DNA of 64,000 bases, from contig OZ024762.1 of assembly GCA_964016885.1 (NCBI GenBank), positions 17,608,001-17,672,000 on the forward strand, in the 5' to 3' direction. Below the pieces are notes generated by a model. That model was not told where the DNA came from, searched no databases, and saw nothing but the letters and a program-made list of their open reading frames with translations. The stretch is from Eledone cirrhosa (lineage: Eukaryota). Both the position numbers and the translations under genes were made by a program. Of the stretch, positions 1-58,968 are shown in pieces (within the stretch, counting starts at the first letter, position 1; every line of letters starts with the position of its first letter).

Positions 1-604
1 TTCATAGTGGTACATTGTTAGAAGTAACTAACTAAGCCTTCTCTCGACACTATCATTGCATATTTTAAAATCCACTTCTTTATATACTATATTTAGGTTT
101 AATCAATACATATATTGATGATTGGAATCATGGTCTTAAGATTACCCAAATCGATACTAACTATTACAAATACAGATCTCTCTAAGGCTATGTTACCTAC
201 ATATTAATTGTTCTGAAAAGATGCATCAGTCTTCTCCTCTATGGAGCAGAAACGTGGCCCCTCACAAAGACGATTGACAGCAGTGCCCTGAGGACCATCG
301 CAGCCTTAGTCTCGTTCAACGCAGTAGCACCTGGTCGGCTCTACCCATGATGATGCCGGTCTAGTCTAACAAGAATAGATGTACAAAATACTCGAATATA
401 AGGTGACCCTCCTCCCTATCTTATGTCTGAGAAGTGGGCAAAAATGCGAACCTTATTTACGTAGAATTTGAAGTTGGCGAAAATGGTCAAACTATTGACT
501 CCCTATATAAGTCAACCCTTTACGACATATTCCCTGGCTTCTATTCGTGTATATCCCGTTATATATGTACAAAACACTAGCAGTTACTTAATGGCTATAT
601 ATCC
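1..604. repeat. Inverted near-identical copy of 6145-6746
   Basis: 1-604 is the reverse complement of 6145-6746 apart from a few substitutions and one 2-bp indel. It includes a small LINE remnant (LLYGAETWPLTK, ~225-360). Confidence 0.95.
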
Positions 605-804: not shown

Positions 805-1420
805 TACTATAGAATACTGTATTATATATGTATATATACTTACTTCTATAGAACAATACACATATTAATACCTTTACTTCTGTATACATACTGGTAAGTA
901 TGAGAGAGATATAGAATATATATTCTATATATACAGAAATATCTAAACTTACTATAGAATACTGTATTATATATAATCTATTCTATATGTATATATACTT
1001 ACTTCTATAGAACAAAACACGTATTAATACCTTTACTTCTGTATACATACTGGTAAGTATGAGAGATATATTCTATATATACAGAAAGAGGTAAACTTAC
1101 TATAGAATACTGTATTATATATAATCTATTCTATATGTATATATGCTTACTTCTATAGAACAATACACATATTAATACCTTTACTTCTGTATACATACTG
1201 GTAAGTATGAGAGAGAGATATATTCTATATATATACAGAAAGAGGTAAACTTACTATAGAATACTGTATTATATATAATCTATTCTATATATACTTCTAT
1301 AGAACAAAACACACATTAATACCTTTACTTCTGTATACATACTGATATGTATGAGAGATATAGAATACATATTCTATATATACAGAAAGAGGTAAACTTA
1401 CTATAGAATCCTGTATTCTA
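805..1420. repeat. AT-rich tandem repeat, ~145-150 bp unit, ~4 copies
   Basis: TACTATAGAATACTGTATT...CCTTTACTTCTGTATACATACTG recurs at ~805, 950, 1098, 1251 and 1399. Confidence 0.85.
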
Positions 1421-4058
1421 TATATATACACATATGTATGTATATATATACATATGTATATATATATATACATATGTATGTATACATACGTAGATATACA
1501 TATGTATGTATACATACGTATGTATGTATATATATGTATACATACATAGGTATGTATACATACATACCTATGTAGAAACACATACGTATGTATGTAGAAA
1601 CACATACGTATGTATATATATACATACGTATGTATATATATACATACGTATGTGTATATATACATACGTATGTGTATATATATACATACGTATGTGTATA
1701 CATATACATACGTATGTGTATACATGCATACGTATGGATGTATGTATATATATACATACGTATGTATATATATGTATGTATGTATGTGTACATACATACG
1801 TATGTATATATACATACGTATGTGTATATATATACATACGTATGTATATATATACACATACGTATGTATTTATATACATACGTATGTATGTATGTATACA
1901 TACGTATGTATATATATATACACATACGTATGTATTTATATACATACGTATGTATGTATATATATACATACATATGTATATACATACGTATATATACATA
2001 CATACGTATGTATATATACATACGTATGTATATATATACATACGTACGTATGTATATATATACATATGTATATATACATACGTATGTATATACATACGTA
2101 TGTATATATATACATACGTATGTATATATACATACGTATGTATATACATACTTACGTATGTATATATATACATACGTATGTATATATACATACGTATGTA
2201 TATATACATACATACGTATGTATATATACATGCGTATGTATATATATATACATACGTATGTATATATACATACGTATGTATATATACATACGTATGTATG
2301 TATATATACATACGTATGTATATATACATACGTATATATATATACATACGTATGTACATATATATACATACGTATGTATATATACATACGTATGTATATA
2401 CATACGTATGTATATACATACGTATGTATATACATACGTATGTATATATACATACGTATGTATATATACATACGTATGTATATATACATAAGTATGTATG
2501 TATATATACATACGTATGTATATATACATACATACGTATGTATATATATATACATACGTATGTATATATACATACGTATGTATATATACATACATACTTA
2601 TGTATATATACATACGTATGTATATATACATACGTATATATACATACATACGTATGTATATACATACGTATGTATATATACATACGTATGTATATATACA
2701 TACGTATGTATATATATGTACATACGTATGTATGTATATATATATACGTATGTATATATATATACGTATGTATATATACATACGTATGTATATATACATA
2801 CATACGTATGTACATATATATACATACGTATGTATATATATATACATACGTATGTATATATACATACGTATGTATATATACATACATATGTATGTATATA
2901 CATACGTATGTATATACATACGTATGTATATACACATACGTATGTATATATACATACGTATGTATATATACATACGTATGTATATATACATACGTATGTA
3001 TATATACATACGTATGTATATATACATACATACGTATGTATATATATACATACGTATGTATATATACATACGTATGTATATATACATAAGTATGTATGTA
3101 TACATACATACGTATGTATATATACATACATACGTATGTATATATATATACATACGTATGTATATATACATACGTATGTATATATATATACATACGTATG
3201 TATATATACATACGTATGTATATATACATACGTATGTATATATACATACGTATGTATGTATACATACATACGTATGTATGTATACATACATACGTATGTA
3301 TATATACATACGTATGTATGTATACATACATACGTATGTATATATACATACGTATGTATATATACATACGTACGTATGTATATATACACATACGTATGTA
3401 TATATACATATGTATATACATACGTATGTATGTATATACATACGTATGTATGTATACATACATACGTATGTATGTATATACATACGTATGTATGTATATA
3501 CATACGTATGTATATATACACATACTTATGTATATATATACATACGTATGTATACATACATACGTATGTGTATATATATATACATACGTATGTATGTATA
3601 CATACGTATGTATATATACATACGTATGTATGTATATGTATACGTATGTATGTATATATATACATACGTATGTGTATATATATATACATACGTATGTGTA
3701 TATACATACGTATGTATATATACATACGTATGTATATACATACATATGTATGTATATATATACATACGTATGTATGCATACATACGTATATATATACATA
3801 CGTATGTATGTATATACATACGTATGTATATATACATACATATGTATGTATATACATACATATGTATATATATACATACGTATGTATGTATATACATACA
3901 TACGTATGTATGTACACATACATACGTATGTATGTATGCATACATATGTATATATACATACTTATGTATACATACATATGTATGCATATATACATATGTA
4001 TGTATACATACGTATGTATATATATACATATGTATGTATATATACATACATACATACA
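1420..4058. repeat. Compound palindromic microsatellite (TATATACATACGTATG)n
   Basis: 2.6 kb of almost pure purine/pyrimidine alternation with the self-complementary core TACATACGTATGTA. Confidence 0.97.
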
Positions 4059-5831
4059 TCTTTAATTCCTTAGCTATATTTATATAATACACGAGTCTAG
4101 AGATATAAGGGTATTAATATGCATGTAGGTTGTCTTTATATCTGTGTAGTGTAACTTCTAAATTTACAATGAAGATATGCTTTATATACACAAAAGTGTT
4201 TATATGGTGAGTATGCCTGTCTAGAGGAGAACAGGGTATTGATGTATCCTTTAAAGAAAAGGGTAACTGCGTACATATGGTTCTACATACTGTACTCTAT
4301 TGAACACAACTTCAATATATAATGGAGGTACTTCTTTCAATATAGAGAAGAAGGTATATTATAGACATGAAGTAAGCTTTGTGTGTCATATTGAATACAG
4401 TTTTTCTATATATGTGTGTATGTAAAGAACACTAAATTTCTTTGTATTTATACAGTTAGCTCTTTTGCTTCTTAGGAAGCATGTACACGTTCTACTATGA
4501 GATGCTTATACACAACTAGAAGAACAATAGCAGTAGTTTCCTAAGAGACGTATGTGTAGTATCTCGCGAGGATGTATTGATATGTATGTACAGATCAAAA
4601 CCTCTTATCTTATATATGTATGATCACTTCCAGGTTTCTACATACACGTGTATAATATAAAGAGACACACACAATGTGGGTTTAGATATATTATATAGAA
4701 TACAGTTTCTAATATACAGACATGTCTACATTGATGTTATTTACCTGTATATAGAGATGGCTTGTGTGTATCTAGGAAATAATTTATATAATATGAATCA
4801 AGTATACAGTGACAGAAGGTTTTTATCTTCCTACGGTGTAAGAGGTGTCTAGTGTGTGTATATATACAGGGAGTAAATAATAAGGGAACAAAGGAAAATA
4901 CTGGTTTATTCTTTTATTTCACAATTTATTTACCTTTCTTCTTGAGATAGGGTTGTAGTAGTCTCCAGGTCTGGTGCTGTTCCTTAGGAATATAAAATAG
5001 GTTAGTTGTGTATATAGTGAAGAACGTTTATATATGGATGATGTAGCTATCAAGCAGGTGATGATGCTAGAAGTAGTAGTAAGGAGTCTTACGGCAGAGT
5101 AATGGAGCTACCATGCTTCGTTAGATATAAAATATAACTGTATGGTTTAGCTTCTATATTCATATGTCTAGAGAAGGTTTAGTTTCATGTCTATTATTCC
5201 AGTATGAACAAGTTTGTATATTGCGCCTCATAAGTATCTGTTATGATAGAAGGGAGACCGTTTATATATGAATATAGCTTCATGTGTACGTATGTCCACA
5301 GGATTCTTCCTCTACATGGTTTAGAATAAATTTACGGCTAATACATAAATATGCCTGAAGTGTTTGTGTATTCAGGTATAAGGTTTATATACAGAAGATA
5401 AAATGTGTATAGAGAGGAAGCTTGGTTATATTTCCTTACAAGTATGTATATAGTATCAAGAGAAGATTTAGTTGTAACATGTTAGAAGAGGTGTGTATAT
5501 ATATACAGATCATGGTTAGTTTTATTTCATAATAGAGGAGGGTAACATGTATGTTTAGTTAAAGAGGTAGCTGCGTGTATATATTTAGTTTTGTTTCTTT
5601 AAAAGACATGGCAACTTACTTTTGTGTGTGTATATACGGCAAATAAAACTTTACATACCTCTTTACACGAACGTAAAATCCAAACCGGTATCGTTAATAG
5701 TCCCAGAGTAAATAGAATGATGAGAAATGACAACAAAGTAAGAAGAGTTCCACAAACCGGAAGTAGTTCAATGTCAACAAAGGGCAAATAATTCCAATTA
5801 AGGGGAGATAACTCTCGTCAAATTGTTTGGC

Positions 5832-6002
5832 AAAAACTCATGCGAGGGGGAGAGCAGGCCAGCATAAAGCCAGCCTGCTGTGGTCCCGGCCGACCCCCGC
5901 AACGATTCGAACTTCAGACACGATCGAGTGGTCATGCCATACCGAAGTACAACAGCGAAGCCAGAAACGCTACGTGCAGCGCCACGCACAAGCCGCAATT
6001 CT
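5832..6002 (-). ncRNA. Putative structured Pol III small RNA, copy 1 (family not recognised)
   Basis: GC-rich island in AT-rich DNA. TATAAGTA at 6027-6020, B-box-like GTTCGAATC at 5912-5904, T5 at 5836-5832. Stems need G-U pairs on the minus strand and show compensatory changes against copy 2. Confidence 0.6.
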
Positions 6003-6058
6003 ACAGAGTCAAATAGGCATACTTATAGCTAACATTTTCCTTCTTTTTTAAAAAAAAA

Positions 6059-6124
6059 AGAAACGGAAAGAAAGCAAGATAACACGACATATTCCGAGTG
6101 TTATCTCGTTTTCTTTCCGTTTCT
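6059..6124. promoter_or_regulatory. Inverted pair of a ~25-bp motif (GTTATCTYRY...CCGTTTCT) upstream of RNA copy 1; PSE-like candidate
   Basis: AGAAACGGAAAGAAAGCAAGATAACAC-12 nt-GTGTTATCTCGTTTTCTTTCCGTTTCT. The same motif pair lies upstream of copy 2. Confidence 0.4.
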
Positions 6125-7557
6125 CTTTCTATATAAATATAACGGGATATATAGCCATTAAGGAACTGCTAGTGTTTTGTACATATATAACGGGATATAC
6201 ACGAATAGAAGCCAGGGAATATGTCGTAAAGGGTTGACTTATATAGGGAGTCAATAGTTTGACCATTTTCGCCAACTTCAAATTCTACGTAAATAAGGTT
6301 CGCATTTTTGCCCACTTCTCAGACATAAGATAGGGAGGAGGGTCACCTTATATTCGAGTATTTTGTACATCTATTCTTGTTAGACTAGACCGGCATCATC
6401 ATGGGTAGAGCCGACCAGGTGCTACTGCGTTGAACGAGACTAAGGCTGCGATGGTCCTCAGGGCACTGCTGTCAATCGTCTTTGTGAGGGGCCACATTTC
6501 TGCTCCATAGAGGAGAAGACATGCATCTTTTCAGAACAATTAATATGTAGGTAACATAGCCTTAGAGAGATCTGTATTTGTAATAGTTAGTATCGATTTG
6601 GGTAATCTTAAGACCATGATTCCAATCATCAATATATGTATTGATTAAACCTAAATATAGTATATAAAGAAGTGGATTTTAAAATATGCAATGATAGTGT
6701 CGAGAGAAGGCTTAGTTAGTTACTTCTAACAATGTACCACTATGAATAAGACAGAAGGCGGTGTATGTAGATAGAATGTTTAGTTTTCCTGAGTATGAAG
6801 GGGTTTTAGTTATTATTCTTAGTAAAAAGACGGTTATATTATACATTTACGTCTCTAACATTCCTCCTGTATATGAAGGGTAGTGAAATATATTCTTGTG
6901 TCTCAGGAATAACTACGTGTTTATCGATGAATTTAAGGGACAACTAAAACATTACATACCTCTTTAGAAGAATGAAGGTGTATATTGATCTAGATAGGAA
7001 ACGTTTCTTCCAGTGTGTGGATTATAGAGGTGAATGCATACACTAAAGAATGTTAATATATATCTAAGACTGTATTTTCGAGTGTTTAGCAATGAATTAA
7101 AATATACATGGCAAATAAAGCGTTCGTATAGGTAAATTAGAGGGTATTTTACCTCAGCTAAAGAACATTTATATATATATAAATCTAGTTTTGTGTGTGT
7201 ATTTAGGTTTAAATAAAACAATATGTACGTCTCTAGAATCTTTCTGTATATAGAATAATTGTTTCTACTTTTGGCACAAGGCCAGCAATTATCCAGTGCA
7301 TTACTGGTACTTTATTTTATCGACCGCATAAGGATGAAAGGCATATAGAATAATGTATGTCTGTGAGTGTATATACGGCAAATAAAACATTACATACCTC
7401 TCACCATTAGTATAATATCCAGACTGATTCTATCAAATTACACGAGTAAATCCAAACGATGTTAACAGTTTAATTCAATAAAGAAGAATGACAACAAACA
7501 AGAATAGTTCCAATCAGGGGCAAGTAATTCAAACGATAACTCGGCGAATTTTTTAGT

Positions 7558-7716
7558 AAAAAATCAATGCGAGGCGGGTACGCAGGCCAGCATAAAGCCG
7601 GGCTGCTGCCGCCGCAACGATTCGAGCTTCAGACACATAGAATGGTCATGCCATATCGAAGTACAAGAGCGAAGCCCGAAACGTTACGTGCAGCGCCATG
7701 CACAGAACGCAACTCT
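7558..7716 (-). ncRNA. Putative structured Pol III small RNA, copy 2
   Basis: Paralog of 5832-6002. TATAAGTA at 7741-7734, GCTCGAATC at 7627-7619, T6 at 7563-7558, same hairpins. Confidence 0.6.
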
Positions 7717-7773
7717 ACTGAGTAAATTAGTCATACTTATAGTTAGAATTTTATTTATTAAAAAAATATATAT

Positions 7774-7955
7774 AGAAACGGAATGAAGGCGAGATAACTG
7801 AGGGCGTGGGGAAATATCTCTTTTTGAATATATTTCGTATGGTGAGAGTTGAGATCTCTACCGAATGATTATCAATATTATACTTCGTCTCCGAAATATT
7901 TTCAGAAAGAAATTACTTTTTCACGACCGTGTTATCTCACTTCCATCCCGTTTCT
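7774..7955. promoter_or_regulatory. Inverted motif pair upstream of RNA copy 2
   Basis: AGAAACGGAATGAAGGCGAGATAAC (7774-7798) and GTTATCTCACTTCCATCCCGTTTCT (7931-7955). Confidence 0.4.
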
Positions 7956-9389
7956 ATATGTAACAAGTTTAAACAACTAGTATTTAATACATATATATAT
8001 ATACAGAACAATAAGTATATTTACTTCAAGATAGTAATGTTTATGTTAATACAGAAAATAAAAAATGCAAACCATCGATCTTAGTAATTAGTATCAATCC
8101 CTAATTATCTATTTTGGTAATAAGCATCTTAAGACCATGATTTCCTTCACGATATGTGATTAGACCAAAATTTAGTATAATATATAAAGACTGTTCTCAG
8201 CTTATGACCAGTTTGCTTGGTGTTAAGTGTCTGAGAGTACAAGACTCTCCCTGGATAGTACGCTGGTCTACCACAGGACTAACTCCTCGGCTGTGAGTAC
8301 TGAAGCAATGTGATGAATGCAGAACTTCCAAACTGTGAGAGTTACATGCATGCATGGACCTGCAACTCCTAAGGGAGTCATACAGGCCACACATTGACAT
8401 ACAGTATTTCTAGGGCACTTTTTAAAACCTGGCAGACCCATCTCCTCTCCAGGTCTGAATACAGCAGATTTCTTCCAGAGAAACAGAAGAATCAACCTCA
8501 ATACTAGACTGGTACTTTGTTTTATCAACCTCAAATGGGTGAAAGGCAAAGTTGACCTCAGCAGGATTTTAATTCAGAGAACTGAAGGCATTCTGTTACA
8601 TTCATATATACATACATACTTTGTCTAATAAACAAAACATCTTCTCTCTCTACACACATAACATATAAAGCTACATTTATATATACCTCTTCTAAGAAAT
8701 TAAACCTACTCTAGACTTACACATAGATACAGTTATATATAAATACTTACCTTGTCAAATAAACACAACTAAATCTTCTCTAGACAGACACACAAAGCTA
8801 CATTTATATAAACATTCTTCTCTACAAACGAGAATCAGCTGAAAAGCTCATAGGCTGACTTTGAAGGAGTGATGCTAGAACTGCGAGATATTGTGGTTAG
8901 GTTCATTATCATAGGACTTGGTGGAGCAACCAAAATTCACTGCCAACTCATGTACAACTTTATGATGTTCGTGATTCATCGGTGAAAAGGAATGACTCTG
9001 ATAGTTCTGTTTCATGTGAGGAAGACTAAAAGGAAACCTTCAGAGTGTGCATTGAACAATATGGGATATTTCTAGAATGTAACTAATGCTAACTTGAATC
9101 ATCCTTGGACATCATCATACATAGTATATATATAGTGTGTTTAGTACAGTGTAGTTGTAGCTAACTAGGTATTTGGTTTTATGAAATGAAAGGGACAAAA
9201 AAACAAACTATATATATACACTGATACTTCAATGTGTTATAAGCAATCCAATACCACTGTTGGATACATAGAGTGCTTCATCCTGCTTACACCAAAGTTT
9301 ATGGATTAAGGTGGTGCAAACACAACACTTAAATAAAGGAAACAATATATGGCCATAGTACAGAAAATTCTTATAATATACATATATAT

Positions 9390-9428
<39 letters not shown>

Positions 9429-9429
9429 T

Positions 9430-9990
9430 CGGGCTGGATTCTGTTGAGGGTCTTTGCCACAAGTGACATCAATGAGATTACCCTGTAGTTGTTCATGTTA
9501 GAGAGATCTCCCTTCTTTGGTACTTAGATGATGTTAGTGATCAAGGGCAACTTTCTTCAGTGCCTGGTTACAGAACTCCAGGATGATATCATCAAAATCA
9601 CACCTCTTCATCACTTTTGATGCCTCTCCATCTTCTCCATGGGTCTTGATCTTCTTGGTTCTCTGAAGCCCCTCTCTGGCGAAGGTCCTGTCTCAATATC
9701 CAGTTCCTCAAACAGCTGTCTGATCCCTCTGGTATTCTGGGCTATCGAAGGTGGCTCTCCTAGTAGGGTCTTAAAATGGTCCAGCCTCTTCTTACCCCCA
9801 GATCTAACTCAAACTTCCTCTCTTCCTTCCTGTAATCTCGTTGATCATCATCCAGCTCTCTCTACACTCTGGCAACATATATGTTGATGCCCTAAGGACA
9901 AACACTGGTCTCTGGGAGAGATGGGACGATGATGGAGAACAGAGACCACTGGAGAGAACTCGTCCATGGATCTCGGGAATTTTACCTGCT
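9430..9990. mobile_element. Degenerate LINE remnant with 5' inversion
   Basis: 9430-9870 on minus encodes RT N-terminal VPKKGDLSNMNNYRVISLMSLVAKTLNR. 9875-9990 on plus is the 3' end (YVDALRTNTGL), also seen at 50230-50357. Confidence 0.65.
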
Positions 9991-10381
9991 CTCTTTCTCT
10001 CTCTCTATATATATATATATACACTGACCACCTACAAGGTTACATCTCAAAGGAGGTTTAAACCAGTTCTTTTATCCCGAAACTTTTTCAGGAACTGTAG
10101 ACAAGGAGTTTCTTATGGTTGTAGGTTTTTTGAAAGGGGAAAAATAACAGAAGGCAACACATAAGGTGATTGTCGTGTGAAGGAGGAAGATTGGTAGAGC
10201 AATGGACTCCATGGACACTGGTAAGGCTAACTTAGAACAGGATGGAAAGGTATCCATGGTGAGTGAAAAACCTAACCATTGTTTCAGCTACAGCAGCAGA
10301 GGAATTAAGTTACGGTGGGTTTGAAGAAAACAGAGTGGGATGTCTTCAATGTAGTGACTATATAGACCAGAGGCTTTCAAC

Positions 10382-11183
10382 ATAACTGATGAGTGTTTCA
10401 GTGGAGACCAGCAACTTCTGAGGAGCAGGGACTATAGTAGTAGAGATAGAATAGGCAGAGGGAACGGCATATTTAGGGGCTGGGGAGAAGCAGAGACCAC
10501 TGTAGCAGAGGTAGACTAGGTAGAGAGGGAACAGCATATTTAGGGGCTGGGGAGTGCTAGTGAGGAGCAGGAACCAGTGTAGTAGAGGTAGACTAGGAAG
10601 AGAGGGAATAGCATATTTAGGGGTTGGGAGGAGCAGAGATCATTGTAGTAGAGGTAGAGAAGGAACAGCATATTTAAGGGCTGGGGAGGAGCAGAGACCA
10701 TTGTAGTAGAGGTATAATGTGCAGAAGGAGGAGAGACAATAATTGTGGACCAGAACCTGTTGAATTGTTGATAAAGCTGGAGTGTCATCCCTTAACTGAT
10801 GAGTGTTTCAGTGAGACCAGCAACCTCTGAGGAGCAGGGACTACAGTAGTAGAGATAGAATAGGCAGAGGGAACGGCATATTTAGGGGCTGGGGAGAAGC
10901 AGGGACTACAGTAGTAGAGATAGAATAGGCAGAGGGAACGGCATATTTAGGGGCTGGGGAGAAGCAGAGACCACTGTAGTAGAGATAGAGAGGGAACAGC
11001 ATATTTAGGGTTGGGGAGGAGCAGAGACCATTGTAGTAGAGGTAGAGAGGGAACATCATATTTATGGGCTGGGGAGGAGCAGAGACCATTGTAGTAGAGG
11101 TATAATGTGCAGAAGGAGGAGAGACAATAATTGTGGACCAGAGCCTGTTGAATTGTTGATAAAGCTGGAGTGTCATCCCTTAA
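10382..11183. repeat. Nested tandem repeat (~55-65 bp subunits within a ~410 bp duplication)
   Basis: TGTAGTAGAG...GGAACAGCATATTTAGGGGCTGGGGAG subunits; the block starting TAACTGATGAGTGTTTCAG occurs at ~10383 and ~10792. Confidence 0.85.
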
Positions 11184-11755
11184 TGTAGCAACCTTGTCAA
11201 CATGAATGTCCTTGGGGGATAAACCCCTTTTCTACAGGTACTTGATAATACCACGATGCCAAATTTTGTCCATTTTCAAGAGGTCATTACTAATTACATT
11301 TGAAGTCCTCTTTCAACAGTCAGATGTCAGTTTACTTGGAAAGAAACAATGCAGTTATTAATAAGAAGAGTTGAAATTAATTCATGCAAGATTTCCCAGC
11401 TCTAGCATCAGTCCTTCATAGTCAGCCAACATTCGTACTTCTGCTGGGTCAAGCCCGACGGGGGCTGACGTCTTAAACAAGCCCCAACAAATAAGAAAGA
11501 TTTAGAAGAGAACACAAAAGTGACATTAGAATTATTGCTGGAAATAGCAGCCAAATATTTATCGCTCGCCACGTTTTAAAATAATGAAGGACACATTAGA
11601 AGATGTAGTTTTAGATAGTCATATATACACATATTGGTCAACGCTGGAATCTCATTGATTCTATATACATAAGTCGGTTTTCAGAGGACCTATTCAGGTT
11701 ATGGGAACTGTTTGTCCCCCGTGTAAAAATTTGGCGTATATATATATAATTTCGA

Positions 11756-11803
<48 letters not shown>

Positions 11804-12760
11804 TTATATATGTCTGTATGCATTTTGTTGAGGTTTAAATGGTGAACATTTCATAAGGTAGCTGTTGTTTACTTTCATTGACAAGTCAGACCTGAGCGAT
11901 CAAGACATATATTTACATATACATAATCAAAAGTAAAAACATTGTTAATATCTTCCTACACAGATAAAATATAAAAGATTGTATTTACATGTGTCACAGC
12001 TAATTCACCTCCGTAATTCTTAGGAAACCTGGCTTCTATTTCTAGCAAGTCGAGCGTAGACGTAGAGACGTGTTGCTGTTGTTTACTTTTATTCACAGGT
12101 CTTGAACGAGCAAGACAAGATGACCCGACATGTGTGTAATCCTGTGTTTATATGATTATCAAGGTACCCACATCTACATCGTTGAATGCACCTTTCATTG
12201 TTTTAAAAGGGGTTGTAGAAGACAGAACATCTGAGGGTGAGAGGCCGGAGATCGTCAGTGAGTGGCTTTAAATTAATTAGCAATGATTCTATGAAATAAA
12301 GAAGCGAAATGACTTTGAAGAAAAATAGGAGAACAATAGTAATTATAATGAGGCCGGTGTAGCGATTACATATTGCCCTTTGTTTACATTAACCACTCCC
12401 GACACCATGGTAATTAGATATTCAGATTACAGGGAGATGTGGGATGGAATTAATTCTTTTATTTATTTACTTATATCAAACAACAAACACGGTGGCAAGG
12501 AGTAAATTAAAAAACTCGCCTTTCTTTTAAAATAAAATTCAAGCCTAACCTCTCCCATGATGCAACAGTGCGGGTAAATAAGTTGATGCTTTAGCGACAT
12601 CAGTTCCTTAAATTTCACCAGGAGGAAATCTCAAGAACGATAACTCTGTCTTTACTTAATCGCAAAAATGGGTGCAAAAATTATTTCGAAACAACACTTC
12701 CTATGGACGAAAACGACAATATTAAAAGTATTTTGTGGATTTTTAATAGGTGAACACATC

Positions 12761-12796
<36 letters not shown>

Positions 12797-12799
<3 letters not shown>

Positions 12800-15700
12800 C
12801 ATCAGTCCTTCATAGGCTGACCAAGATACTCTCATGGAATGACCAAATGAGGTTTATTTTTCAACATACAAGATTGCACAGCTCTAGCATCACTCCTTCA
12901 TAGGCTGACCAAGATACTCTCATGGAATGACCAAATGAGGTTTATTTTTCAACATGCAAGATTTCACAGCTCTAGCATCACTCCTTCATAGGCTGACCAA
13001 GATACTCTCATGGAATGACCAAATGAGGTTTATTTTTCAACATGCAAGATTGCACAGCTCTAGCATCACTCCTTCATAGGCTGACGAAGATACTCTCATG
13101 GAATGACCAAATGAGGTTTATTTTTCAACATGCAAGATTTCACAGCTCTAGCATCACTCCTTCATAGGCTGACCAAGATACTCTCATGGAATGACCAAAT
13201 GAGGTTTATTTTTCAACATGCAAGATTGCACAGCTCTAGCATCACTCCTTCATAGGCTGACCAAGATACTCTCATGGAATGACCAAATGAGGTTTATTTT
13301 TCAACATGCAGGATTGCACAGCTCTAGCATCACTCCTTCATAGGCTGACCAAGATACTCTCATAGAATGACCAAATGAGGTTTATTTTTCAACATTCAAG
13401 ATTGCACAGCTCTAGCATCACTCCTTCATAGGCTGACCAAGATACTCTCATGGAATGACCAAATGAGGTTTATTTTTCAACATGCAAGATTGCACAGCTC
13501 TAGCATCACTCCTTCATAGGCTGACCAAGATACACTCATGGAATGACCAAATGAGGTTTATTTTTCAACATGCAAGATTTCACAGCTCTAGCATCACTCC
13601 TTCATAGGCTGACCAAGATACTCTCATGGAATGACCAAATGAGGTTTATTTTTCAACATGCAAGATTTCACAGCTCTAGCATCACTCCTTCATAGGCTGA
13701 CCAAGATACTCTCATGGAATGACCAAATGAGGTTTATTTTTCAACATGCAAGATTGCACAGCTCTAGCATCACTCCTTCATAGGCTGACCAAGATACTCT
13801 CATGGAATGACCAAATGAGGTTTATTTTTCAACATGCAGGATTGCACAGCTCTAGCATCACTCCTTCATAGGCTGACCAAGATACTCTCATAGAATGACC
13901 AAATGAGGTTTATTTTTCAACATTCAAGATTGCACAGCTCTAGCATCACTCCTTCATAGGCTGACCAAGATACTCTCATGGAATGACCAAATGAGGTTTA
14001 TTTTTCAACATGCAAGATTGCACAGCTCTAGCATCACTCCTTCATAGGCTGACCAAGTTACTCTCATGGAATGACCAAATGAGGTTTATTTTTCAACATG
14101 CAAGATTTCACAGCTCTAGCATCACTCCTTCATAGGCTGACCAAGATACTCTCATGGAATGACCAAATGAGGTTTATTTTTCAACATGCAAGATTTCACA
14201 GCTCTAGCATCACTCCTACATAGGCTGACCAAATGAGGTTTATTTTTCAACGTGCAAGATTTCACAGCTCTAGCATCACTCCTTCATAGGCTGACCAAGA
14301 TACTCTCATGGAATGACCAAATGAGGTTTATTTTTCAACATGCAAGATTGCACAGCTCTAGCATCACTCCTTCATAGGCTGACCAAGATACTCTCATGGA
14401 ATGACCAAATGAGGTTTATTTTTCAACATGCAGGATTGCACAGCTCTAGCATCACTCCTTCATAGGCTGACCAAGATACTCTCATAGAATGACCAAATGA
14501 GGTTTATTTTTCAACATTCAAGATTGCACAGCTCTAGCATCACTCCTTCATAGGCTGACCAAGATACTCTCATGGAATGACCAAATGAGGTTTATTTTTC
14601 AACATGCAAGATTGCACAGCTCTAGCATCACTCCTTCATAGGCTGACCAAGATACTCTCATGGAATGACCAAATGAGGTTTATTTTTCAACATGCAAGAT
14701 TTCACAGCTCTAGCATCACTCCTTCATAGGCTGACCAAGATACTCTCATGGAATGACCAAATGAGGTTTATTTTTCAACATGCAAGATTTCACAGCTCTA
14801 GCATCACTCCTTCATAGGCTGACCAAGATACTCTCATGGAATGACCAAATGAGGTTTATTTTTCAACATGCAAGATTGCACAGCTCTAGCATCACTCCTT
14901 CATAGGCTGACCAAGATACTCTCATGGAATGACCAAATGAGGTTTATTTTTCAACATGCAAGATTTCACAGCTCTAGCATCACTCCTTCATAGGCTGACC
15001 AAGATACTCTCATGGAATGACCAAATGAGGTTTATTTTTCAACATGCAAGATTGCACAGTTCTAGCATCACTCCTTCATAGGCTGACCAAGATACTCTCA
15101 TGGAATGACCAAATGAGGTTTATTTTTCAACATGCAGGATTGCACAGCTCTAGCATCACTCCTTCATAGGCTGACCAAGATACTCTCATAGAATGACCAA
15201 ATGAGGTTTATTTTTCAACATTCAAGATTGCACAGCTCTAGCATCACTCCTTCATAGGCTGACCAAGATACTCTCATGGAATGACCAAATGAGGTTTATT
15301 TTTCAACATGCAAGATTGCACAGCTCTAGCATCACTCCTTCATAGGCTGACCAAGATACTCTCATGGAATGACCAAATGAGGTTTATTTTTCAACATGCA
15401 AGATTGCACAGCTCTAGCATCACTCCTTCATAGGCTGACCAAGATACTCTCACGGAATGACCAAATGAGGTTTATTTTTCAACATGCAAGATTGCACAGC
15501 ACTAGCATCACTCCTACATAGGCTGACCAAATGAGGTTTATTTTTCAACGTGCAAGATTTCACAGCTTTAGCATCACTCCTTCATAGGCTGACCAAGATA
15601 CTCTCATGGAATGACCAAATGAGGTTTATTTTTCAACATGCAAGATTGCACAGCTCTAGCATCACTCCGACATAGGCTGACCAAATGAGGTTTATTTTTC

Positions 15701-15843
15701 AACGTGCAAGATTTCACAGCTCTAGCATCACTCCTTCATAGGCTGACCAAGATACTCTCATGGAATGACCAAATGAGGTTTATTTTTCAACATGCAAGAT
15801 TTCACTGCGCTAGCATCACTCCTTCATAGGCTGACCAAGATAC
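12797..15843. repeat. 88-bp satellite, ~35 copies
   Basis: Unit GCTCTAGCATCACTCCTTCATAGGCTGACCAAGATACTCTCATGGAATGACCAAATGAGGTTTATTTTTCAACATGCAAGATT(G/T)CACA, with a few 66-bp deletion variants between the internal TGACCAA repeats. Confidence 0.97.
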
Positions 15844-16827: not shown

Positions 16828-19827
16828 AACCGCTCAAACGAGGTTGTAGAAATGTTTGAACGTAAGGAGGTTGATGTCTGCTGCATCCAAGAGACCAGGT
16901 GGAGGGGCGGGTCTGCTAGATTCATTGTGGCTAAAAAACGATGCTATAAGCTTTTCTGGGTGGGAAATGACAATGGGCTGGGTGGGGTAGGAATCATGTT
17001 AGCAGAAAAATGGGTGGATAAGATAATAGACGTAAATAGAGTAAACGAAAGAATAATTAAAATAAGACTTGTTCTAAATAGAACTACTGTGACGATAATA
17101 TCTGCGTACGCGCCCCAATCCGGACTGCCTGGCGCTATAAAAGACACTTTCTATGAGACACTGATCCTCACTACCTCCCAAATAACCGACAGTGACTATA
17201 TAATTATTGCTGGCGACCTAAATGGTCACGTTGGACAACATTGTGACGGCTATGATGAAATCCATGGAGGCTATGGGTTTGGTACTAGAAATGAGGAAGG
17301 CTCCAGAATCCTGGAATTCTGTGACGCAAATAACCTAACAATCTGTAACACTAACTTCAAAAAACGAGACAATCACTTGATCACCTACAGATCAGGGGAA
17401 CATACCAGCCAGGTAGATTATATCCTTACCAGAAGACATGACAGAGTGACTGTTGTAAACACTAAATCCCTCCCCCATGAAGAATGCACCTCCCAACATA
17501 GACTGATAATTAGCGACCTCATAGTCAGGACGAGACATACTCGACAGCAGAAGAGGACTATCCTCAAGAGAAAAATATGGAAGCTAAAGGACCCCACAGC
17601 CAGAAATAAATTTCAAAGCATATTACTTGATGCTTTCGACAGTAAGGAAGAGCATTTAGAGTCGGACAATATAGAGGGACAGTGGGAATTCCTGAAAGCA
17701 AACCTGCTGATGGCGGCAGACGAAGTCTGTGGCCGGAGCAGGCCTATAGGCAGGAGGAGAGTAACTTGGTGGTGGAACAGTAAGGTGGAGGAGTCGATTA
17801 AGGCCAAAAAGCAGGCTTGGAAAATATGGCGGGATGGGGGAAGTAGAGAAGACTATCAAGTGGCCAGGAGGGAAGCTAGGAGACAAGTGTACATCACAAG
17901 AAGGGAAGCAGAGGAAAGAAAGTTCAAGCATGTTCTACAACGCGAGGACCAAAAACGTGAGGTGTTCAGGATTGCTAGGCAATGTGTCAAGGAAAACCGT
18001 GATATTGTTGGGGAGAAGTGTGTTCTAAATGATGATGGCGTGCTCGCCATCACTGACGCTGATAAGAAGGTCGCTTGGAAGTGTCACTACGAGAGGCTAC
18101 TAAATGAGGAGAATAAATGGGAGAAGGATAGTCTCCCCCAGATCGATCCAATAGAGGGACCAGCAGTGTTAGTTGAAGGTAGTATAATAAGTAAGGCAAT
18201 CAAAGATATGAAGACGGGTAAGGCGGCTGGGCCTTCGGAAATAGTTGCTGAGATGCTGAAGGCCTCTGGAACGGTGGGACACATCATGGTCACCCGGATA
18301 GTCAACCAAGTCATACAGAATGGGGTTGTTCCAAAGGACTGGCATAGCAGCATCATCATTAACTGTTACAAGGGTAAAGGAGACGCCCTAGATAGGAGTA
18401 ACTATAGAGGGATTAAATTAATCGACGAGGTCATGAAGGTCACGGAAAAAGTAATAGTGCAACTAATCAGAGAGAGAATCGATCTAGATGAAATGCAGTT
18501 CGGGTTTGTGTCAGGCAAAAGTACCACAGACGCTCTTTTCATTGTACGACAACTACAGGAGAAGTACCTAGCTAAAAGTAAACCCCTATACTTAGCCTTT
18601 GTCGACTTGGAGAAAGCCTTCGACAGAGTCCCCCGTTCCATTATCTGGTGGGCTCTTAGAAAACTAGGTGTTGACGAATGGCTTGTGAGAGCTATACAAG
18701 CCATGTATAAAGAAACAGTGAGCAAGGTTAGAATTAACAACGAATATAGTGAAGAGTTTAGCGTAAAAGTTGGTGTCCATCAGGGCTCTGTTCTTAGCCC
18801 CCTACTATTCATTATTGCTCTTCAGGCTATAACAGAGGAGTTCAAGACCGGCTGCCCATGGGAACTCCTATACGCAGATGACCTAACGCTCATAGCTGAA
18901 TCAATGGCCGAGCTAGAGAAGAAATTCCAAACATGGAAGCACGGCCTAGAATCAAAAGGCCTTAAAATTAACATGGCTAAGACTAAAGTTTTAGTTTGTA
19001 GGAAAGAAAATAAGGCGCCGGTCCCTTCCGGGAAATGGCCATGCTCGGTGTGTAGGAAGGGCGTAGGTAGAAACTCCATTTTATGTCCCAAATGCAAAGT
19101 ATGGGTGCATAAAAGATGTAGTGGGATCACAGGTAAGCTAACTAAGAACACAGATTTTACATGTGGCCGGTGCTCTGGTGCAATAAGAAGCAGCAAGTGC
19201 CCACAAAATACTAGCTCTTTCAACTGCGCAGAGGGTTCTATAGAAATAGTGGACAGCTTCCGTTACCTGGGTGACAAAATCAGCAGTGGTGGGGGGTGCT
19301 CCGAAAGTACAGTAGCTAGAGTCAGAACTGGATGGAAAAAGTTCAGAGAGCTTATACCACTATTAGCCGCTAAAGGGTTCTCCCTAAAAATGAAAGGCAG
19401 GTTGTATGATGCCTGCATACGAACAGCAATGTTGCATGGCAGTGAGACCTGGGCATTGTGTGCAGAGGATATACGCAGACTAGAGAGGAACGAAGCTTGC
19501 ATGCTCCGCTGGATGTGTAATAGATATATTCGCGAACGGCAAAGCATAAACGAACTAAGGAAAAAATTAGAAATAAGAGGGATCAGATGTTGTTTACTCG
19601 AGAGAAGGCTACGTTGGTATGGTCACGTGATGCGCATGAAAGACGACAGCTGTATAGCAAAGTGCAGGGCAATAAAGATAGACGGTAGCCACGGAGTAGG
19701 CAGACCCAGAAAAACCTGGGACGAGTTGATAAATTCCGACCTCACACACTTACACCTCTCCAAGACAATGTCACTGGACCGAGAGCTTTGGCGGTACTCA
19801 GTAATAGAGAAGACCCGCGTTACCTAA
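16828..19827 (+). CDS. RTE ORF: APE endonuclease + reverse transcriptase + PHD-type zinc finger
   Basis: [21 protein letters not shown] and SQVDYIL (endonuclease); [28 protein letters not shown] and YADD at 18871-18882 (RT); C4HC3 at 19042-19173. No internal stops in 999 codons. The first ~145 aa of the ORF-track entry are microsatellite. Confidence 0.95.
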
Positions 19828-22249: not shown

Positions 22250-25200
22250 TGTGTGTGTAGTTCGCAGCCAACACACATTCTACATTGTGTAGTTTGCAAC
22301 CAACACACATTCTACATTGTGTAGTTCGCAGCCAGCATACATTCTACATTGTGTAGTTTGCAGCCAACACACATTCTACATTGTGTAGTTCGCAATCAAC
22401 ACACATTCTACACTATGTAGTTTGCAGCCAACACACATTCTACATTGTGTAGTTCGCAGTCAACACACATTCTACATTGTGTAGTTCACAGTCAACACAC
22501 ATTCTACATTGTGTAGTTTGCAGCCAACACAGTCTACATTGTGTAGTTTGCAGCCAACACACATTCTACATTGTGTAGTTTGCAGCCAACACACATCCTA
22601 CATTGTGTAGTTCGCAGTCAACACACATTCTACATTGTGTAGTTTGCAGCCAACACACATCCTACATTGTGTAGTTCGCAGTCAACACACATTCTACATT
22701 GTGTAGTTTGCAGCCAACACACATTCTACATTGTGTAGTTTGCAGCCAGCACACATTCTACATTGTGTAGTTTGCAGCCAACACAGTCTACATTGTGTAG
22801 TTTGCAGCCAACACACATTCTACATTGTGTAGTTTGCAGCCAACACACATCCTACATTGTGTAGTTCGCAGTCAACACACATTCTACATTGTGTAGTTTG
22901 CAGCCAACACACATCCTACATTGTGTAGTTCGCAGCCAACACACATTCTACATTGTGTAGTTTGCAGCCAACACACATCCTACATTGTGTAGTTCGCAGC
23001 CAACACACATTCTACATTGTGTAGTTTGCAGCCAACACACATTCTACATTGTATAGTTTGCAGCCAACACACATCCTACATTGTGTAGTTCGCAGCCAGC
23101 ACACATTCTACATTGTGTAGTTCACAGTCAACACACATTCTACATTGCGTAGTTTGCAGCCAACACACATTCTACACTATGAGGTTTGCAGCCAGCACAC
23201 ATTCTACATTGTGTAGTTCGCAGCCAGCACAATTCTACATTGTGTAGTTTGCAGCCAGCACACATTCTAAATTGTGTAGTTTGCAGCCAACACACATTCT
23301 ACACTATGTAGTTTGCAGCCAGCACACATTCTACATTGTGTAGTTCGCAGCCAACACACATTCTACATTGTGTAGTTCGCAGCCAGCACACACATTCTAC
23401 ACTATGTAGTTTGCAGCCAACACACATCCTACATTGTGTAGTTCGCAGCCAACACACATTCTACATTGTCTAGATTGCAGCCAACACACATCTTACATTG
23501 TGTAGTTCACAGCCAACACACACATTCTACACTATGTAGTTTGCAGCCAACACACATTCTACATTGTGTAGTTTGCAGCCAACACACATCCTACATTGTG
23601 TAGTTCGCAGCCAACACACATTCTACATTGTGTAGTTTGCAGCCAACACACATTCTACATTGTATAGTTTGCAGCCAACACACATCCTACATTGTGTAGT
23701 TCGCAGCCAGCACACATTCTACATTGTGTAGTTCACAGTCAACACACATTCTACATTGCGTAGTTTGCAGCCAACACACATCCTACATTGTGTAGTTCAC
23801 AGTCAACACACATTCTACATTGTGTAGTTCGCAGCCAACAGACATTCTACATTGTGTAGTACGCAGTCAACACACATTCTACATTGTGTACTTTGCAGCC
23901 AACACACATCCTACATTGTGTAGTTCACAGTCAACACACATTCTACATTGCATAGTTTGCAGCCAACACACATCCTACATTGTGTAGTTCACAGTCAACA
24001 CACATTCTACATTGTGTAGTTCGCAGCCAACACACATTCTACACTATGTAGTTTGCAGCCAGCACACATTCTACATTGTGTAGTCCGCAGCCAACACACA
24101 TTCTACATTGTGTAGTTTGCAGCCAGCACACATTCTACACTGTGTAGTTCGCAGCCAACACACATTCTACATTGTGTAGTTTGCAGCCAACACACATTCT
24201 ACATTGTGTAGTTTGCAGCCAACACACATCCTACATTGTGTAGTTCGCAGCCAACACACATTCTACATTGTATAGTTTGCAGCCAGCACACATTCTACAT
24301 TGTGTAGTTCGCAGCCAACACACACATTCTACACTATGTAGTTTGCAGCCAACACAAATTCTACATTGTGTAGTTTGCAGCCAGCACACATTCTACATTG
24401 TGTAGTTCGCAGCCAGCACACATCTTATATTGTGTAGTTTGCAGCCAGCACACATTCTACAGTGTAGTTCGCAGCCAACACACATTCTACATTGTATAGT
24501 TTGCAGCCAATACACATTCTACATTGTGTAGTTTGCAGCCAACACACATTCTACACTATGAGGTTTGCAGCCAGCACACATTCTACATTGTGTAGTTCGC
24601 AGCCAGCACAATTCTACATTGTGTAGTTTGCAGCCAGCACACATTCTACATTGTGTAGTCGCAGTCAACACACATTCTACATTGTGTAGTTTGCAGCCAA
24701 CACACATTCTACACTATGTAGTTTGCAGCCAGCACACATTCTACATTGTGTAGTTCGCAGCCAACACACATTCTACATTGTGTAGTTTGCAGCCAACACA
24801 CATCCTACATTGTGTAGTTCGCAGCCAACACACACATTCTACACTATGTAGTTTGCAGCCAACACACATTCTACATTGTGTAGTTTGCAGCCAACACACA
24901 TCCTACATTGTGTAGTTCGCAGCCAACACACATTCTACATTGTGTAGTTTGTAGCCAACGCACATTCTACATTGTAGTTTGCAGCCAACACACATCCTAC
25001 ACTGTGTAGTTCGCAGCCAGCACACATTCTACATTGTGTAGTTCGCAGCCAACACACATTCTACATTGTGTAGTTTGTAGCCAACACACATTCTACATTG
25101 TATAGTTTGCAGCCAACACACATCCTACATTGTGTAGTTCACAGTCAACACACATTCTACATTGTGTAGTTCGCAGCCAACAGACATTCTACATTGTGTA

Positions 25201-26475
25201 GTACGCAGTCAACACACATTCTACATTGTGTACTTTGCAGCCAACACACATCCTACATTGTGTAGTTCACAGTCAACACACATTCTACATTGTGTAGTTT
25301 GCAGCCAACACACATCCTACATTGTGTAGTTCACAGTCAACACACATTCTACATTGTGTAGTTCGCAGCCAACACACATTCTACATTATGTAGTTTGCAG
25401 CCAGCACACATTCTACATTGTGTAGTCCGCAGCCAACACACATTCTACATTGTGTAGTTTGCAGCCAGCACACATTCTACACTGTGTAGTTCGCAGCCAA
25501 CACACATTCTACATTGTGTAGTTTGCAGCCAACACACATTCTACATTGTGTAGTTTGCAGCCAACACACATCCTACATTGTGTAGTTCACAGCCAACACA
25601 CATTCTACATTGTATAGTTTGCAGCCAGCACACATTCTACATTGTGTAGTTCGCAGCCAGCACACATCTTATATTGTGTAGTTTGCAGCCAGCACACATT
25701 CTACAGTGTAGTTCGCAGCCAACACACATTCTACAGTGTAGTTCGCAGCCAACACACATTCTACATTGTATAGTTTGCAGCCAATACACATTCTACATTG
25801 TGTAGTTTGCAGCCAACACACGTTCTACACTATGAGGTTTGCAGCCAGCACAATTCTACATTGTGTAGTTTGCAGCCAGCACACATTCTACATTGTGTAG
25901 TTTGCAGTCAACACACATTCTACATCGTGTAGTTTGCAGCCAGCACACATTCTACATTGTGTAGTCGCAGTCAACACACATTCTACATTGTGTAGTTTGC
26001 AGCCAACACACATTCTACACTATGTAGTTTGCAGCCAGCACACATTCTACATTGTGTAGTTCGCAGCCAACACACATTCTACATTGTGTAGTTTGCAGCC
26101 AACACACACACATTCTACACTATGTAGTTTGCAGCCAACACACATTCTACATTGTGTAGTTTGCAGCCAACACACATCCTACATTGTGTAGTTCGCAGCC
26201 AACACACATTCTACATTGTGTAGTTTGTAGCCAACACACATTCTACATTGTATAGTTTGCAGCCAACACACATCCTACACTGTGTAGTTCGCAGCCAGCA
26301 CACATTCTACATTGTGTAGTTCGCAGCCAACAGACATTCTACATTGTGTAGTTTGCAGCCAACACACACATTCTACATTGTGTAGTTTGCAGCCAGCACA
26401 CATTCTACATTGTGTAGTTCGCAGCCAGCACACATTCTACATTGTGTAGCTCGCAGCCAGCACACAATCTACATA
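22250..26475. repeat. 32-bp minisatellite, ~130 copies
   Basis: Unit TGTGTAGTT(T/C)GCAGCCAACACACATTCTACAT. Confidence 0.97.
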
Positions 26476-38133: not shown

Positions 38134-38851
38134 CTAGAGAGGAACGAAGCTTGCATGCTCCGCTGGATGTGTAACAGTAATATACGTGAACGGCAAAGCA
38201 TAAACGAACTAAGGAAAAAATTAGAGATAAGAGGGATCAGATGTTGTTTACTCGAGAGAAGGCTGCGTTGGTATGGACACGTGATGCGCATGAAAGTCGA
38301 TAGCTGTATTACAAAGTGCAGGGCAATAAAGATAGACGGTAGCCACGGAATAGGCAGACCTAGAAAAACATGGGATGAGCTGATAAACTCCGACCTCACA
38401 CACTTACACCTCTCCAAGACAATGTCACTGGACCGTGACCTTTGGCGGTACTCAGTAACAGAGAAGACCCGCCTTGCCAGTAGGCATCTCTAACAAAATA
38501 CACCCCTCCCGCCGCCACCCCCACCCCATCCACACCACCCCGTTCTATGTAAAGTTATGTTGGTGCCGCGCCATCCAGGCCGAAACAAATGAGATCGTGT
38601 AGGTGTCACGACAAAAAAACACACAGTCCACGCTGTAATGTGGCCGTGTAGGCAACACGGTAAAAACCTCCCAGACCCACACTGTAAATGTGGTTGGTGT
38701 TAGGAAGGGCATCCAACTGTAGAAAACCTGCCAGACAGTCCTATGCGAGCAAGACAATCACTCTTGCCTCAAGTGGGACTACCCCCGTCCAAACCCATGC
38801 AAGCGTGGAACACGGACGTTAAACGTTGATGATGATGATGATGATGATGAT
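38134..38851 (+). mobile_element. 5'-truncated RTE copy (ORF C-terminus plus 3' UTR)
   Basis: Highly similar to 19480-20309; lacks the internal 3' UTR duplication. Confidence 0.93.
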
Positions 38852-45547: not shown

Positions 45548-46475
45548 ACATCATCATCATCATCATCATCATCGTCGTCGTCATTTTTACGTCCACTTTT
45601 CCACGCTTGCATCGGTTGGACGGGTCCTTCTCAACGTGGCTTTACTCCACACGACGCGATTCTTTGTCATCACCTCTCAGTTTCAGTGATTTGAGGTCAG
45701 CTCTCAGAAAATCTGCCCAGGTCTTTCTTTGTCTACATCTACTGCGACTTCCTTCCACTGGCATTTCCTATCACTTCTTCACCCAACGATCATAATCCAT
45801 ACACATCACATGCCTATACCAACGATGTCTTCTCTCCTGCACACTACCTTGAATTCGTCTTAAACTCAGCTTCTCCTTCAAATCGTCCAGGCTCTGCCTC
45901 TCTTTCACACTTAGATTGTACATCCAGTGGAGCATGGTTCCTTCGTTTCTCTCCAGTCTACACATGTCCTCTGTAATCACAGCCCATGTTTCACTACCAT
46001 GCATTCTCTCCAGTCTACACATGTCCTCTGTAATCACAGCCCATGTTTCACTACCATGCATTCTCTCCAGTCTACACATGTCCTCTGTAATCACAGCCCA
46101 TGTTTCACTACCATGCATTCTCTCCAGTCTACACATGTCCTCTGTAATCACAGCCCATGTTTCACTACCATGCAGCATCGCACTTCACATACACTTCACA
46201 TACACTTCAGCATCGCACTTCACATACAGGTGTCATACAGTCGTCCTTTTGTATGCAGGGAGAAACCTTTAGTGGTCAACAGTGGGAGTAGTCCTCTCAA
46301 CCTTTTCCATTCTATCCTTATTCTAGCTATTATGCTCTCAGAGCAACCCCCTCCAATGCTAATTATGTTGCCTAGAGAGCAGAAACTACCAACCACTTCT
46401 ATGGGTCCTTCCTCTAACTGGAACAGGCTTACGTTACTGGCTACCTTTCCCTCGGTTACCCCTGTACACCCCCTA
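45548..46475 (-). mobile_element. Diverged RTE 3' fragment containing a 57-bp x4 tandem expansion
   Basis: MHGSETWAVITEDMCRLER repeated 4 times (45947-46172); (GAT)n tail at ~45550. Confidence 0.85.
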
Positions 46476-58499: not shown

Positions 58500-58968
58500 A
58501 GGTCGCCAAGTATGAAATTTGTAGAAAACAAAACAAATTTCTAGAAATTTAATATTTGACGACACAATATGAAATTTGTAGAAATTTGTAGATAACAAAA
58601 CAAATTTCTACAAATTTAATACTTGACGACACAATATGAAATTTGTAGAAATTTGTAGAAAACAAAACAAATGTCTACAAATTTAATACTTGACGACACA
58701 ATATGAAATTTGTAGAAATTTGTAGCAAACAAAACAAATTTCTACAAATTTAATACTTGACGACACAATATGAAATTTGTAGAAATTTGTAGAAAACAAA
58801 ACAAATTTCTACAAATTTAATACTTGACGACACAATATGAAATTTGTAGAAATTTGTAGAAAACAAAACAAATTTCTACAAATTTAATACTTGACGACAC
58901 AATATGAAATTTGTAGAAATTTGTAGAAAACAAAACAAATTTCTACAAATTTAATACTTGACGACGCA
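58500..58968. repeat. 67-bp tandem repeat (~7 copies) with an internal hairpin
   Basis: AAATTTGTAGAAA...TTTCTACAAATTT within each unit. Confidence 0.92.

Follow-up and report, generated by a model that had tools for sequence, protein, structure and literature searches.

A candidate snaR-like family of RNA polymerase III genes in convergent inverted duplications of the Eledone cirrhosa genome

To our knowledge, repeat-derived RNA gene families transcribed by RNA polymerase III (Pol III), such as snaR, BC1, and 4.5S, are known mainly from mammals. BC1, BC200, and 4.5SI/4.5SH of rodents and primates are Pol III RNAs derived from repeats or tRNAs, with an upstream TATA-like element and their own terminator; most are single-locus genes, and we know of none that lies in convergent palindromes. 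The snaR genes number tens of copies in tandem clusters. According to PMC3045588, snaR is an Alu-derived Pol III RNA bound to NF90 and ribosomes, and its genes spread mostly by segmental duplication of the gene and a core of flank, with variable extra flank.

The gene family described here, represented by two copies in a window of 64,000 nucleotides (nt) of E. cirrhosa DNA, resembles snaR of the great apes as a candidate set of SINE-derived, lineage-restricted, structured Pol III RNA genes. It differs from snaR in length (150–200 nt versus approximately 117 nt), in its tRNA-Arg-like head in place of an Alu origin, and in arrangement, with at least 171 copies that lie mostly in convergent inverted pairs rather than in tandem clusters; expression and NF90 binding have been demonstrated for snaR and are putative here. 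A TATA-like element and a terminator are shared with BC1, BC200, and 4.5SI/4.5SH, for which the comparison was made through Rfam only and gave no match. With VA RNA (PMC6599070), the family has in common a length of approximately 160 nt, a tandem arrangement of two paralogs, and a predicted architecture of terminal stem, long apical rod rich in wobble pairs, and side domain, but it is cellular and multicopy and has no Rfam match to VA RNA or the EBERs. Compared with tRNA-Arg(UCG/ACG), it has approximately 40 nt where the tRNA has approximately 12, and no cloverleaf called by ARAGORN at its default score. Mollusc SINEs derived from tRNAs (PMC4758252, PMC4824008) are the other point of comparison. 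In some old copies, head and tail are collinear with a high-copy SINE, whereas the SINE core, tail repeat, and TSD are absent and the upstream flanks are kept.

Window copies and known RNA families

The original prediction of two minus-strand paralogs, each with a TATA box, an A-box-like element, a B-box-like element, and a T5-6 run, was confirmed in the sequence in all these parts. The features of the two copies are as follows.

7558..7710, minus strand: copy A, predicted Pol III RNA of 153 nt (up to 160 nt if the start is 7717), ending in T6 (7558-7563)
7734-7741, minus strand: TATA box of copy A, TATAAGTA, read in the sequence
7688..7698, minus strand: partial A-box-like element of copy A, in the D-arm region of the tRNA-like head
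7619..7627, minus strand: B box of copy A, located in the 3' strand of rod P2
7767..7962, no strand: inverted repeat in the DNA upstream of copy A, with arms of 32 nt and a loop of 132 nt
5832..5996, minus strand: copy B, predicted Pol III RNA of 165 nt (up to 171 nt), ending in T5 (5832-5836)
6020-6027, minus strand: TATA box of copy B, TATAAGTA, read in the sequence
5974..5984, minus strand: partial A-box-like element of copy B
5904..5912, minus strand: B box of copy B, the identical 9-mer being present in 36 of 38 distinct B copies
6041..6142, no strand: inverted repeat in the DNA upstream of copy B, with arms of 45 nt and a loop of 12 nt

Both copies carry TGGCGC and G(C/T)TCGAATC boxes, and the layout is that of a type 2 Pol III gene with a TATA box, namely, an internal B box, a TATA box near −30, and a terminator of at least four T. 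The A box is a poor match, only its first bases agreeing with the consensus. Because the first base of the U6 genes of this genome lies approximately 30 nt past the TATA start, we infer that the RNA starts at the conserved G at 7710 or 5996, which is 31 nt after the TATA start in copy A. A run of T4-7 is present in 58/58 A and B copies, although the T run was itself used to delimit the copies, and a nearby T4-5 terminator has been gained in 38/38 B copies. Copies A and B are identical at 88/99 positions in the 5' core, at 26/31 from the TATA box to the predicted start, and at 98/142 downstream. Copy A looks partly decayed, judging from its private changes in the closing pair of hairpin P3, which is broken, and in the B box, a non-family variant present in 1/20 distinct A copies.

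The pair is part of a much larger family than the duplication originally described: an 18-mer had 108 exact matches, of which 98 of the 100 listed were on contigs C22, C23, and C25, and the B-box 18-mer with up to one mismatch gave at least 171 copies, the control being 0 in both cases. DNA searches with A, B, and old-type copies returned 264, 222, and 286 candidates, respectively, and 40 of each were scored. In run X5 (organism B, from a second study, with the library kind not on record), a 151-nt contig covers 5841-5992 of copy B with five differences and one gap, which shows that the B type exists in that run; contigs of one study with an unrecorded library kind are no sign of a transcript. 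Runs X1 and X4 covered 30/30 bins and X5 covered 6/30, the X5 bins flanking copy B being empty.

The predicted lack of a match to known RNA families also held, with both the Rfam covariance models and ARAGORN empty on the RNA. Rfam 15 gave no match in the window at the gathering score; at E ≤ 10, none of the 40 matches in 4000-12800 fell on the RNA, and eight short loci sampled from the four subfamilies (A, B, C13, and old) had no match. The families in question were tRNA, 5S, U6, U6atac, SRP, 7SK, RNase P/MRP, Y, vault, VA, and EBER. ARAGORN called no tRNA gene at the default score and made noise-level calls at a lowered threshold. Likeness to 7SL or an Alu domain was equaled by 477 and 473 of 1000 shuffles for copies A and B, respectively, and the genome's own 7SL gave 25 true matches elsewhere. 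A 13/15 match of copy B to the 7SK 3' hairpin was reached by 8/150 shuffles and is absent from the old type. In a vault RNA, the B box should adjoin the 3' terminal stem; here, 65–100 nt follow the B box. The octamer-like motif near −78 that was seen by eye at four of five U6 loci is present in neither window copy, which argues against a U6-type (type 3) promoter, and the invariant VA RNA tetrastem (GGGU/ACCC) was found in 0/103 copies. A gapped two-motif search of metagenomes had a single match, a bacterial-looking chance hit without a TATA box or other likeness, and the same pattern had no match among viral sequences. Literature titles and abstract openings held no description of the family; Repbase and the 1994 octopus SINE paper lie outside this comparison and may bear on origin and novelty. 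That paper, by Ohshima and Okada, reportedly concerns the octopus OR1, OR2, and OK SINEs.

These searches also located other Pol III genes in the genome. A single 7SK gene over the cut-off (45 bits), with a TATA box and a T run, lies at G000:C2:194684573-194684851 (L211). Fourteen genes that resemble vault RNA exceed the RF00006 cut-off, the best of them scoring 43 bits. They are arranged in tandem at G000:C3:221183987-221251257 (L093-L100, L228) and have a TATA box near −30, a T run, and ends that pair, and two variants alternate among them. This cluster is separate from the family described here and may represent an unreported mollusc vault RNA, as literature titles show none. The 7SL, U6, and tRNA-Arg(UCG) genes form head-to-tail tandem clusters of approximately 20–40 copies each, unlike the convergent pairs of the present family; the cluster positions are G000:C12:42.10-42.13 Mb, C19:31.78-31.84 Mb, and C6:63.12-63.17 Mb.

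Predicted fold and selection on pairing

Copies A and B fold better than dinucleotide shuffles, with z values of −3.4 (1/200 shuffles as good) and −2.6 (2/200), respectively. Representatives of the A, B, old, and C13 types (4/4 subfamilies, 153–200 nt) adopt one predicted topology with z values of −2.1 to −2.6. In this topology, the 5' end pairs with the bases that precede the U run to form a terminal stem. A rod of approximately 18 bp, irregular in its pairing, has the B box in its 3' strand and is capped by two small hairpins, and a side hairpin of 10 bp lies close to the 3' end; in copy B, these elements are predicted as the terminal stem, the P2 rod, the cUUCGg hairpin P3, P4, and the 3' side hairpin P5. 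The cUUCGg loop is present in 16/20 A copies and 27/38 B copies. The rod, which is the main helix, was absent from the helices originally listed, and the 5' GTGCR/TGCAC hairpin that was listed is missing from the minimum-energy folds of the window copies and of the four subfamily representatives, where its bases fall in the terminal stem and the rod.

Pairing was counted in 26 copies chosen from 103 distinct ones, leaving out short and mis-started copies and the terminal stem. In these 26 copies, 91.4% of 1080 cells were paired, compared with 30–38% in slid controls. Two-sided covariation was scarce, being found at 3/45 pairs, a number reached by 349/500 shuffles, and RNAalifold recovered only the rod and the tip hairpins, with a covariation term of −0.61. 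By inspection, the terminal stem keeps its pairing through different letters and lengths in the old, A, and B types. The compensatory changes cited in the original prediction fared unevenly. GAATT/AGTTC to GAGTT/AGCTC rests on a letter found in 1/20 distinct A copies, AGATC being present in 16/20, and GGTATG to GATATG likewise occurs in 1/20; both changes are private to window copy A. The double change to GGCGG/CCGCC is present in 12/20 A copies, but CCGCC also stands opposite an unbroken 5' G run in 12/38 B copies, which indicates that the two sides are only loosely coupled.

We also classed variants in 119 copies against the commonest letter of each column; the classes were made without a tree, so a shared variant may be counted once though it arose repeatedly, or the reverse. 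At paired columns, pairing was kept by 21/40 variants present in three or more copies, by 4/20 doubletons, and by 9/46 singletons (Fisher p = 0.002). Shared variants are, however, richer in transitions everywhere (58:64 in the flank versus 21:52 for singletons), so part of the 21/40 reflects the mutation spectrum, and the direction of transitions at Watson–Crick pairs is the cleaner test. Among shared variants at such pairs, 12 transitions made a wobble and four broke the pair (p = 0.038); with the B-box columns included, the ratio was 13:6 (p = 0.08). For singletons, it was 4:7, and loops and flanks had no bias in wobble direction. The ratio of singleton to shared variants was 49:42 in stems compared with 73:122 in flanks (p = 0.01). 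Overall, p values of the tests for pairing selection ranged from 0.002 to 0.05, and these tests lean in favor of selection because the helices were picked from the same sequences and the copies by resemblance to the RNA. The results lend modest support to selection on pairing of the RNA strand among founders, while many individual copies drift; deletions or broken stems are present in many copies. The earlier view of a multi-hairpin Pol III RNA under structural selection holds for a lineage-specific gene of Pol III type outside Rfam and has modest evidence of pairing selection, whereas much of the covariation it cited consists of private changes of copy A.

The same data bear on a doubtful, although serious, alternative in which the family is a passenger: a Pol III unit of SINE origin, formerly active, would have been trapped in an unstable duplicon rich in satellites, with an inherited fold and an RNA that, if made, has no host role. 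Such a history would agree with the 3–9 kb of flank that young copies have in common at about 92–97%, with the many copies that are truncated or deleted, with private variants that break pairs at the chance rate, and with the scarce two-sided covariation. It is at odds with shared variants that favor pairing solely on the TATA-to-T-run strand and are fewer in stems than in flanks, with the survival of terminal-stem pairing through changes in subfamily length, and with the terminator gained in every B copy.

Genome layout, mode of spread, and origin

The window copies lie in one arm of a palindromic amplicon. On C22, C23, and C25, this arm recurs at about 88–97% identity, and its orientation is alternately inverted. 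Its parts in the window are as follows.

4061..12800, no strand: amplicon arm with copies A and B, at least 8.7 kb
1419..4056, no strand: TA-rich satellite, center of the convergent palindrome
12798..15843, no strand: 88-bp satellite, center of the divergent palindrome across from the TA-rich satellite
1..604, plus strand: end of the opposing, inverted arm; it matches 6145-6749 and stops at an N gap

The assembly gap (N run) at approximately 604-800 occupies the expected place of the palindrome's partner B copy. Further satellites in the window are at 22254-26474 (32 bp), 58514-58971 (67 bp), and 61032-63962 (34 bp). An RTE-like LINE with a long open frame at approximately 16830-19827 (plus strand), which by eye has the look of an endonuclease/reverse transcriptase, adjoins the 88-bp satellite, and 3' fragments of an RTE-like LINE are found at 38155-38493, 45771-46178, and 56605-56940.

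The family is dispersed on at least 14 large contigs. Older copies, mostly 170–200 nt, occur on C4, C7, C8, C9, C11, C12, C13, C15, C18, C20, C21, C23, and C24. Convergent pairing is the prevailing arrangement: 80 of 88 exact B-box matches form 40 convergent pairs, 2.9–14.1 kb apart (median, 7.1 kb), 4/4 C13 loci examined are such pairs, and old copies on C8 likewise come in pairs. At the C9 and C15 loci, there was no convergent partner within 10 kb. Inverted B-box repeats act as TFIIIC chromatin boundaries in fission yeast, and by analogy the paired, inward-facing B-box/TATA units might serve as TFIIIC-bound boundaries around a spacer or satellite. The pairing of young and old copies and the well-kept B box and TATA box are compatible with a role as DNA, but only 4/8 palindrome centers examined have at least 14% tandem repeat and the strand-specific pairing bias is left unexplained; we consider boundaries an improbable account of the family.

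Regarding the mode of spread, the TATA box is kept in 104/119 distinct copies with enough flank, the upstream hairpin arm in 99/119, and the downstream motif in 104/119. At 30 loci, a common core spans approximately −350 to +250 nt relative to the B box; its ends are ragged, and homology fades gradually. Palindrome arms range from approximately 0.4 to 21 kb and end differently at 7/7 palindromes, whose junctions had no common terminus and no consistent or convincing TSD. The kept TATA box, hairpin, and flanks, together with the faded edges and the lack of a terminus or TSD, exclude ordinary retroposition for most copies, and the junctions are a poor fit to a TIR or LTR element. A SINE had been named as the contrary outcome, recognizable by a high dispersed copy number with TSDs; many copies were indeed found, and a convincing TSD in none of seven palindrome junctions. 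Segmental duplication with a core of flank, as in snaR, was found instead, and we infer that the copies spread as DNA by inverted segmental duplication. Even among old types, the two arms of a pair can be 97–98% alike, pointing to recent formation or conversion. The predicted lineage-specific family outside Rfam stands, in the shape of hundreds of copies in inverted segmental duplications.

A non-autonomous mobile element (foldback, Helentron-associated, or TRIMp3/Helenus-like) that carries a tRNA-derived promoter in its repeats would also account for dispersal on at least 14 large contigs with common flanks, and for an upstream hairpin with a short complementary downstream motif; tRNA-bearing LTRs are known in animals (PMC10886601). 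In the same paper, TRIMp3 elements are defined by two direct LTRs with PBS/PPT and a TSD of 4–5 bp, whereas paired copies here are inverted, so that the Helenus/Ajax/Cassandra type does not fit. The fixed termini with TSD of a TIR or foldback DNA transposon were likewise absent at 7/7 palindromes, homology fades gradually, and no element-encoded protein is evident among the open reading frames listed. We accordingly give a mobile element little credence.

Several individual loci depart from the common structure. The truncated copy L141 ends in a SINE-type tail. At L036:4667-4876, a B copy has an inverted copy of its own middle in place of the 3' hairpin, forming a long perfect hairpin that looks like the product of a template switch. 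A subfamily at L182-L191, L151, and L152 (C13, C15, C20, and C11) has lost the TATA box and upstream hairpin to an AT-rich repeat and has still multiplied.

The head of the RNA points to a tRNA-Arg. In a split-half test, tRNA-Arg rows and one Arg-like copy called Gln were the top 7 of 26 tRNA rows, and 0–3 of 200 shuffles were as good, in a panel that is small and has few isotypes. Global alignment to tRNA-Arg beat shuffles for 2/5 queries. The 5' half aligns without gaps to tRNA-Arg for 32 nt, up to the anticodon, and T-arm likeness surrounds the B box. When the pattern was that of a tRNA lacking the insertion but having the anticodon stem of the old type, there was no match, and a looser motif retrieved the genome's tRNA-Arg genes. 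A high-copy SINE, of which a piece lies at 7255-7343, resembles the RNA in its expanded head and has a tail similar to the 3' hairpin (12/21 copies beat all 100 shuffles). Collinear likeness to this SINE gave z values of 3.8–4.4 in 3/5 old-type copies and of 0.6–1.8 in the other 6/9 queries, the young A and B types being at 0.6–0.7, and four non-tRNA controls were near 0. Profile searches of the SINE against the RNA, and the reverse, gave nothing significant. It is likely, on these alignments, that the family descends from a tRNA-Arg-like head, either directly or through a SINE.

Related sequences were noted in passing. Fragments of a very high-copy SINE lie inside the amplicon arm at 7255-7343 and 8508-8548. 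One tRNA-like body occurs with anticodons GGC, AGC, GAC, GTC, and GGT at the dispersed loci L231 and L233-L238, which are probably a tRNA-derived repeat rather than true tRNAs, and a tRNA-Arg copy with an ACG-type body but a TCG anticodon is found at L227:806-880, L245, and L246.

Proposed function

We favor the reading that these loci are a snaR-like gene family with some RNA-level selection, at a probability of roughly 0.7. The full statement, a snaR-like, repeat-derived Pol III gene family whose RNA would have a dsRNA-binding partner, falls somewhat short of even odds. In the mechanism that we propose, TBP on the TATA box and TFIIIC on the B box would set transcription by Pol III going near +31, and it would stop at the T run. 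The product would be a compact RNA whose ends are paired and whose rod is rich in wobble pairs; in this rod, the former 5' half of the tRNA would be paired with the former T arm. Founder copies would be selected for pairing while many single copies drift, and recent inverted duplication or gene conversion would keep the palindrome arms alike. By analogy with snaR and VA RNA, the putative partner may be ADAR, Dicer/TRBP, an NF90-like protein, or the ribosome; the shape of VA RNA engages PKR, Exportin-5, Dicer, and ADAR (PMC6599070).

A precursor role, in which Dicer or the piRNA pathway would cut the rod or terminal stem into 21–30 nt guides that silence the SINE or other targets, is very improbable: the long irregular rod, the paired ends, the weak likeness to the high-copy SINE, and the fact that VA RNA terminal stems are Dicer substrates (PMC6599070) would suit it, but the SINE likeness is low and is lacking in the young A and B types (z 0.6–0.7), and the RNA had no Rfam miRNA match.

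More specifically for the octopus lineage, the snaR-like RNA could be a host-encoded counterpart of VA RNA, an abundant dsRNA decoy that sets ADAR or Dicer activity, which we regard as a long shot. Coleoid cephalopods are marked by heavy A-to-I editing. If the decoy reading were true, hundreds of palindromic Pol III genes would amount to gene-dosage control of this editing, and if the RNA is abundant, a dsRNA-like molecule would be a direct candidate regulator of dsRNA-binding enzymes where editing is extensive. Apart from function, this is a new family of a known kind, in which the convergent palindrome is unusual as the unit of spread. It would be an independent mollusc case of a repeat-derived Pol III RNA gene family, one in which the copies run to hundreds, the subfamilies form a traceable series, and convergent inverted pairs are dispersed along the chromosomes.
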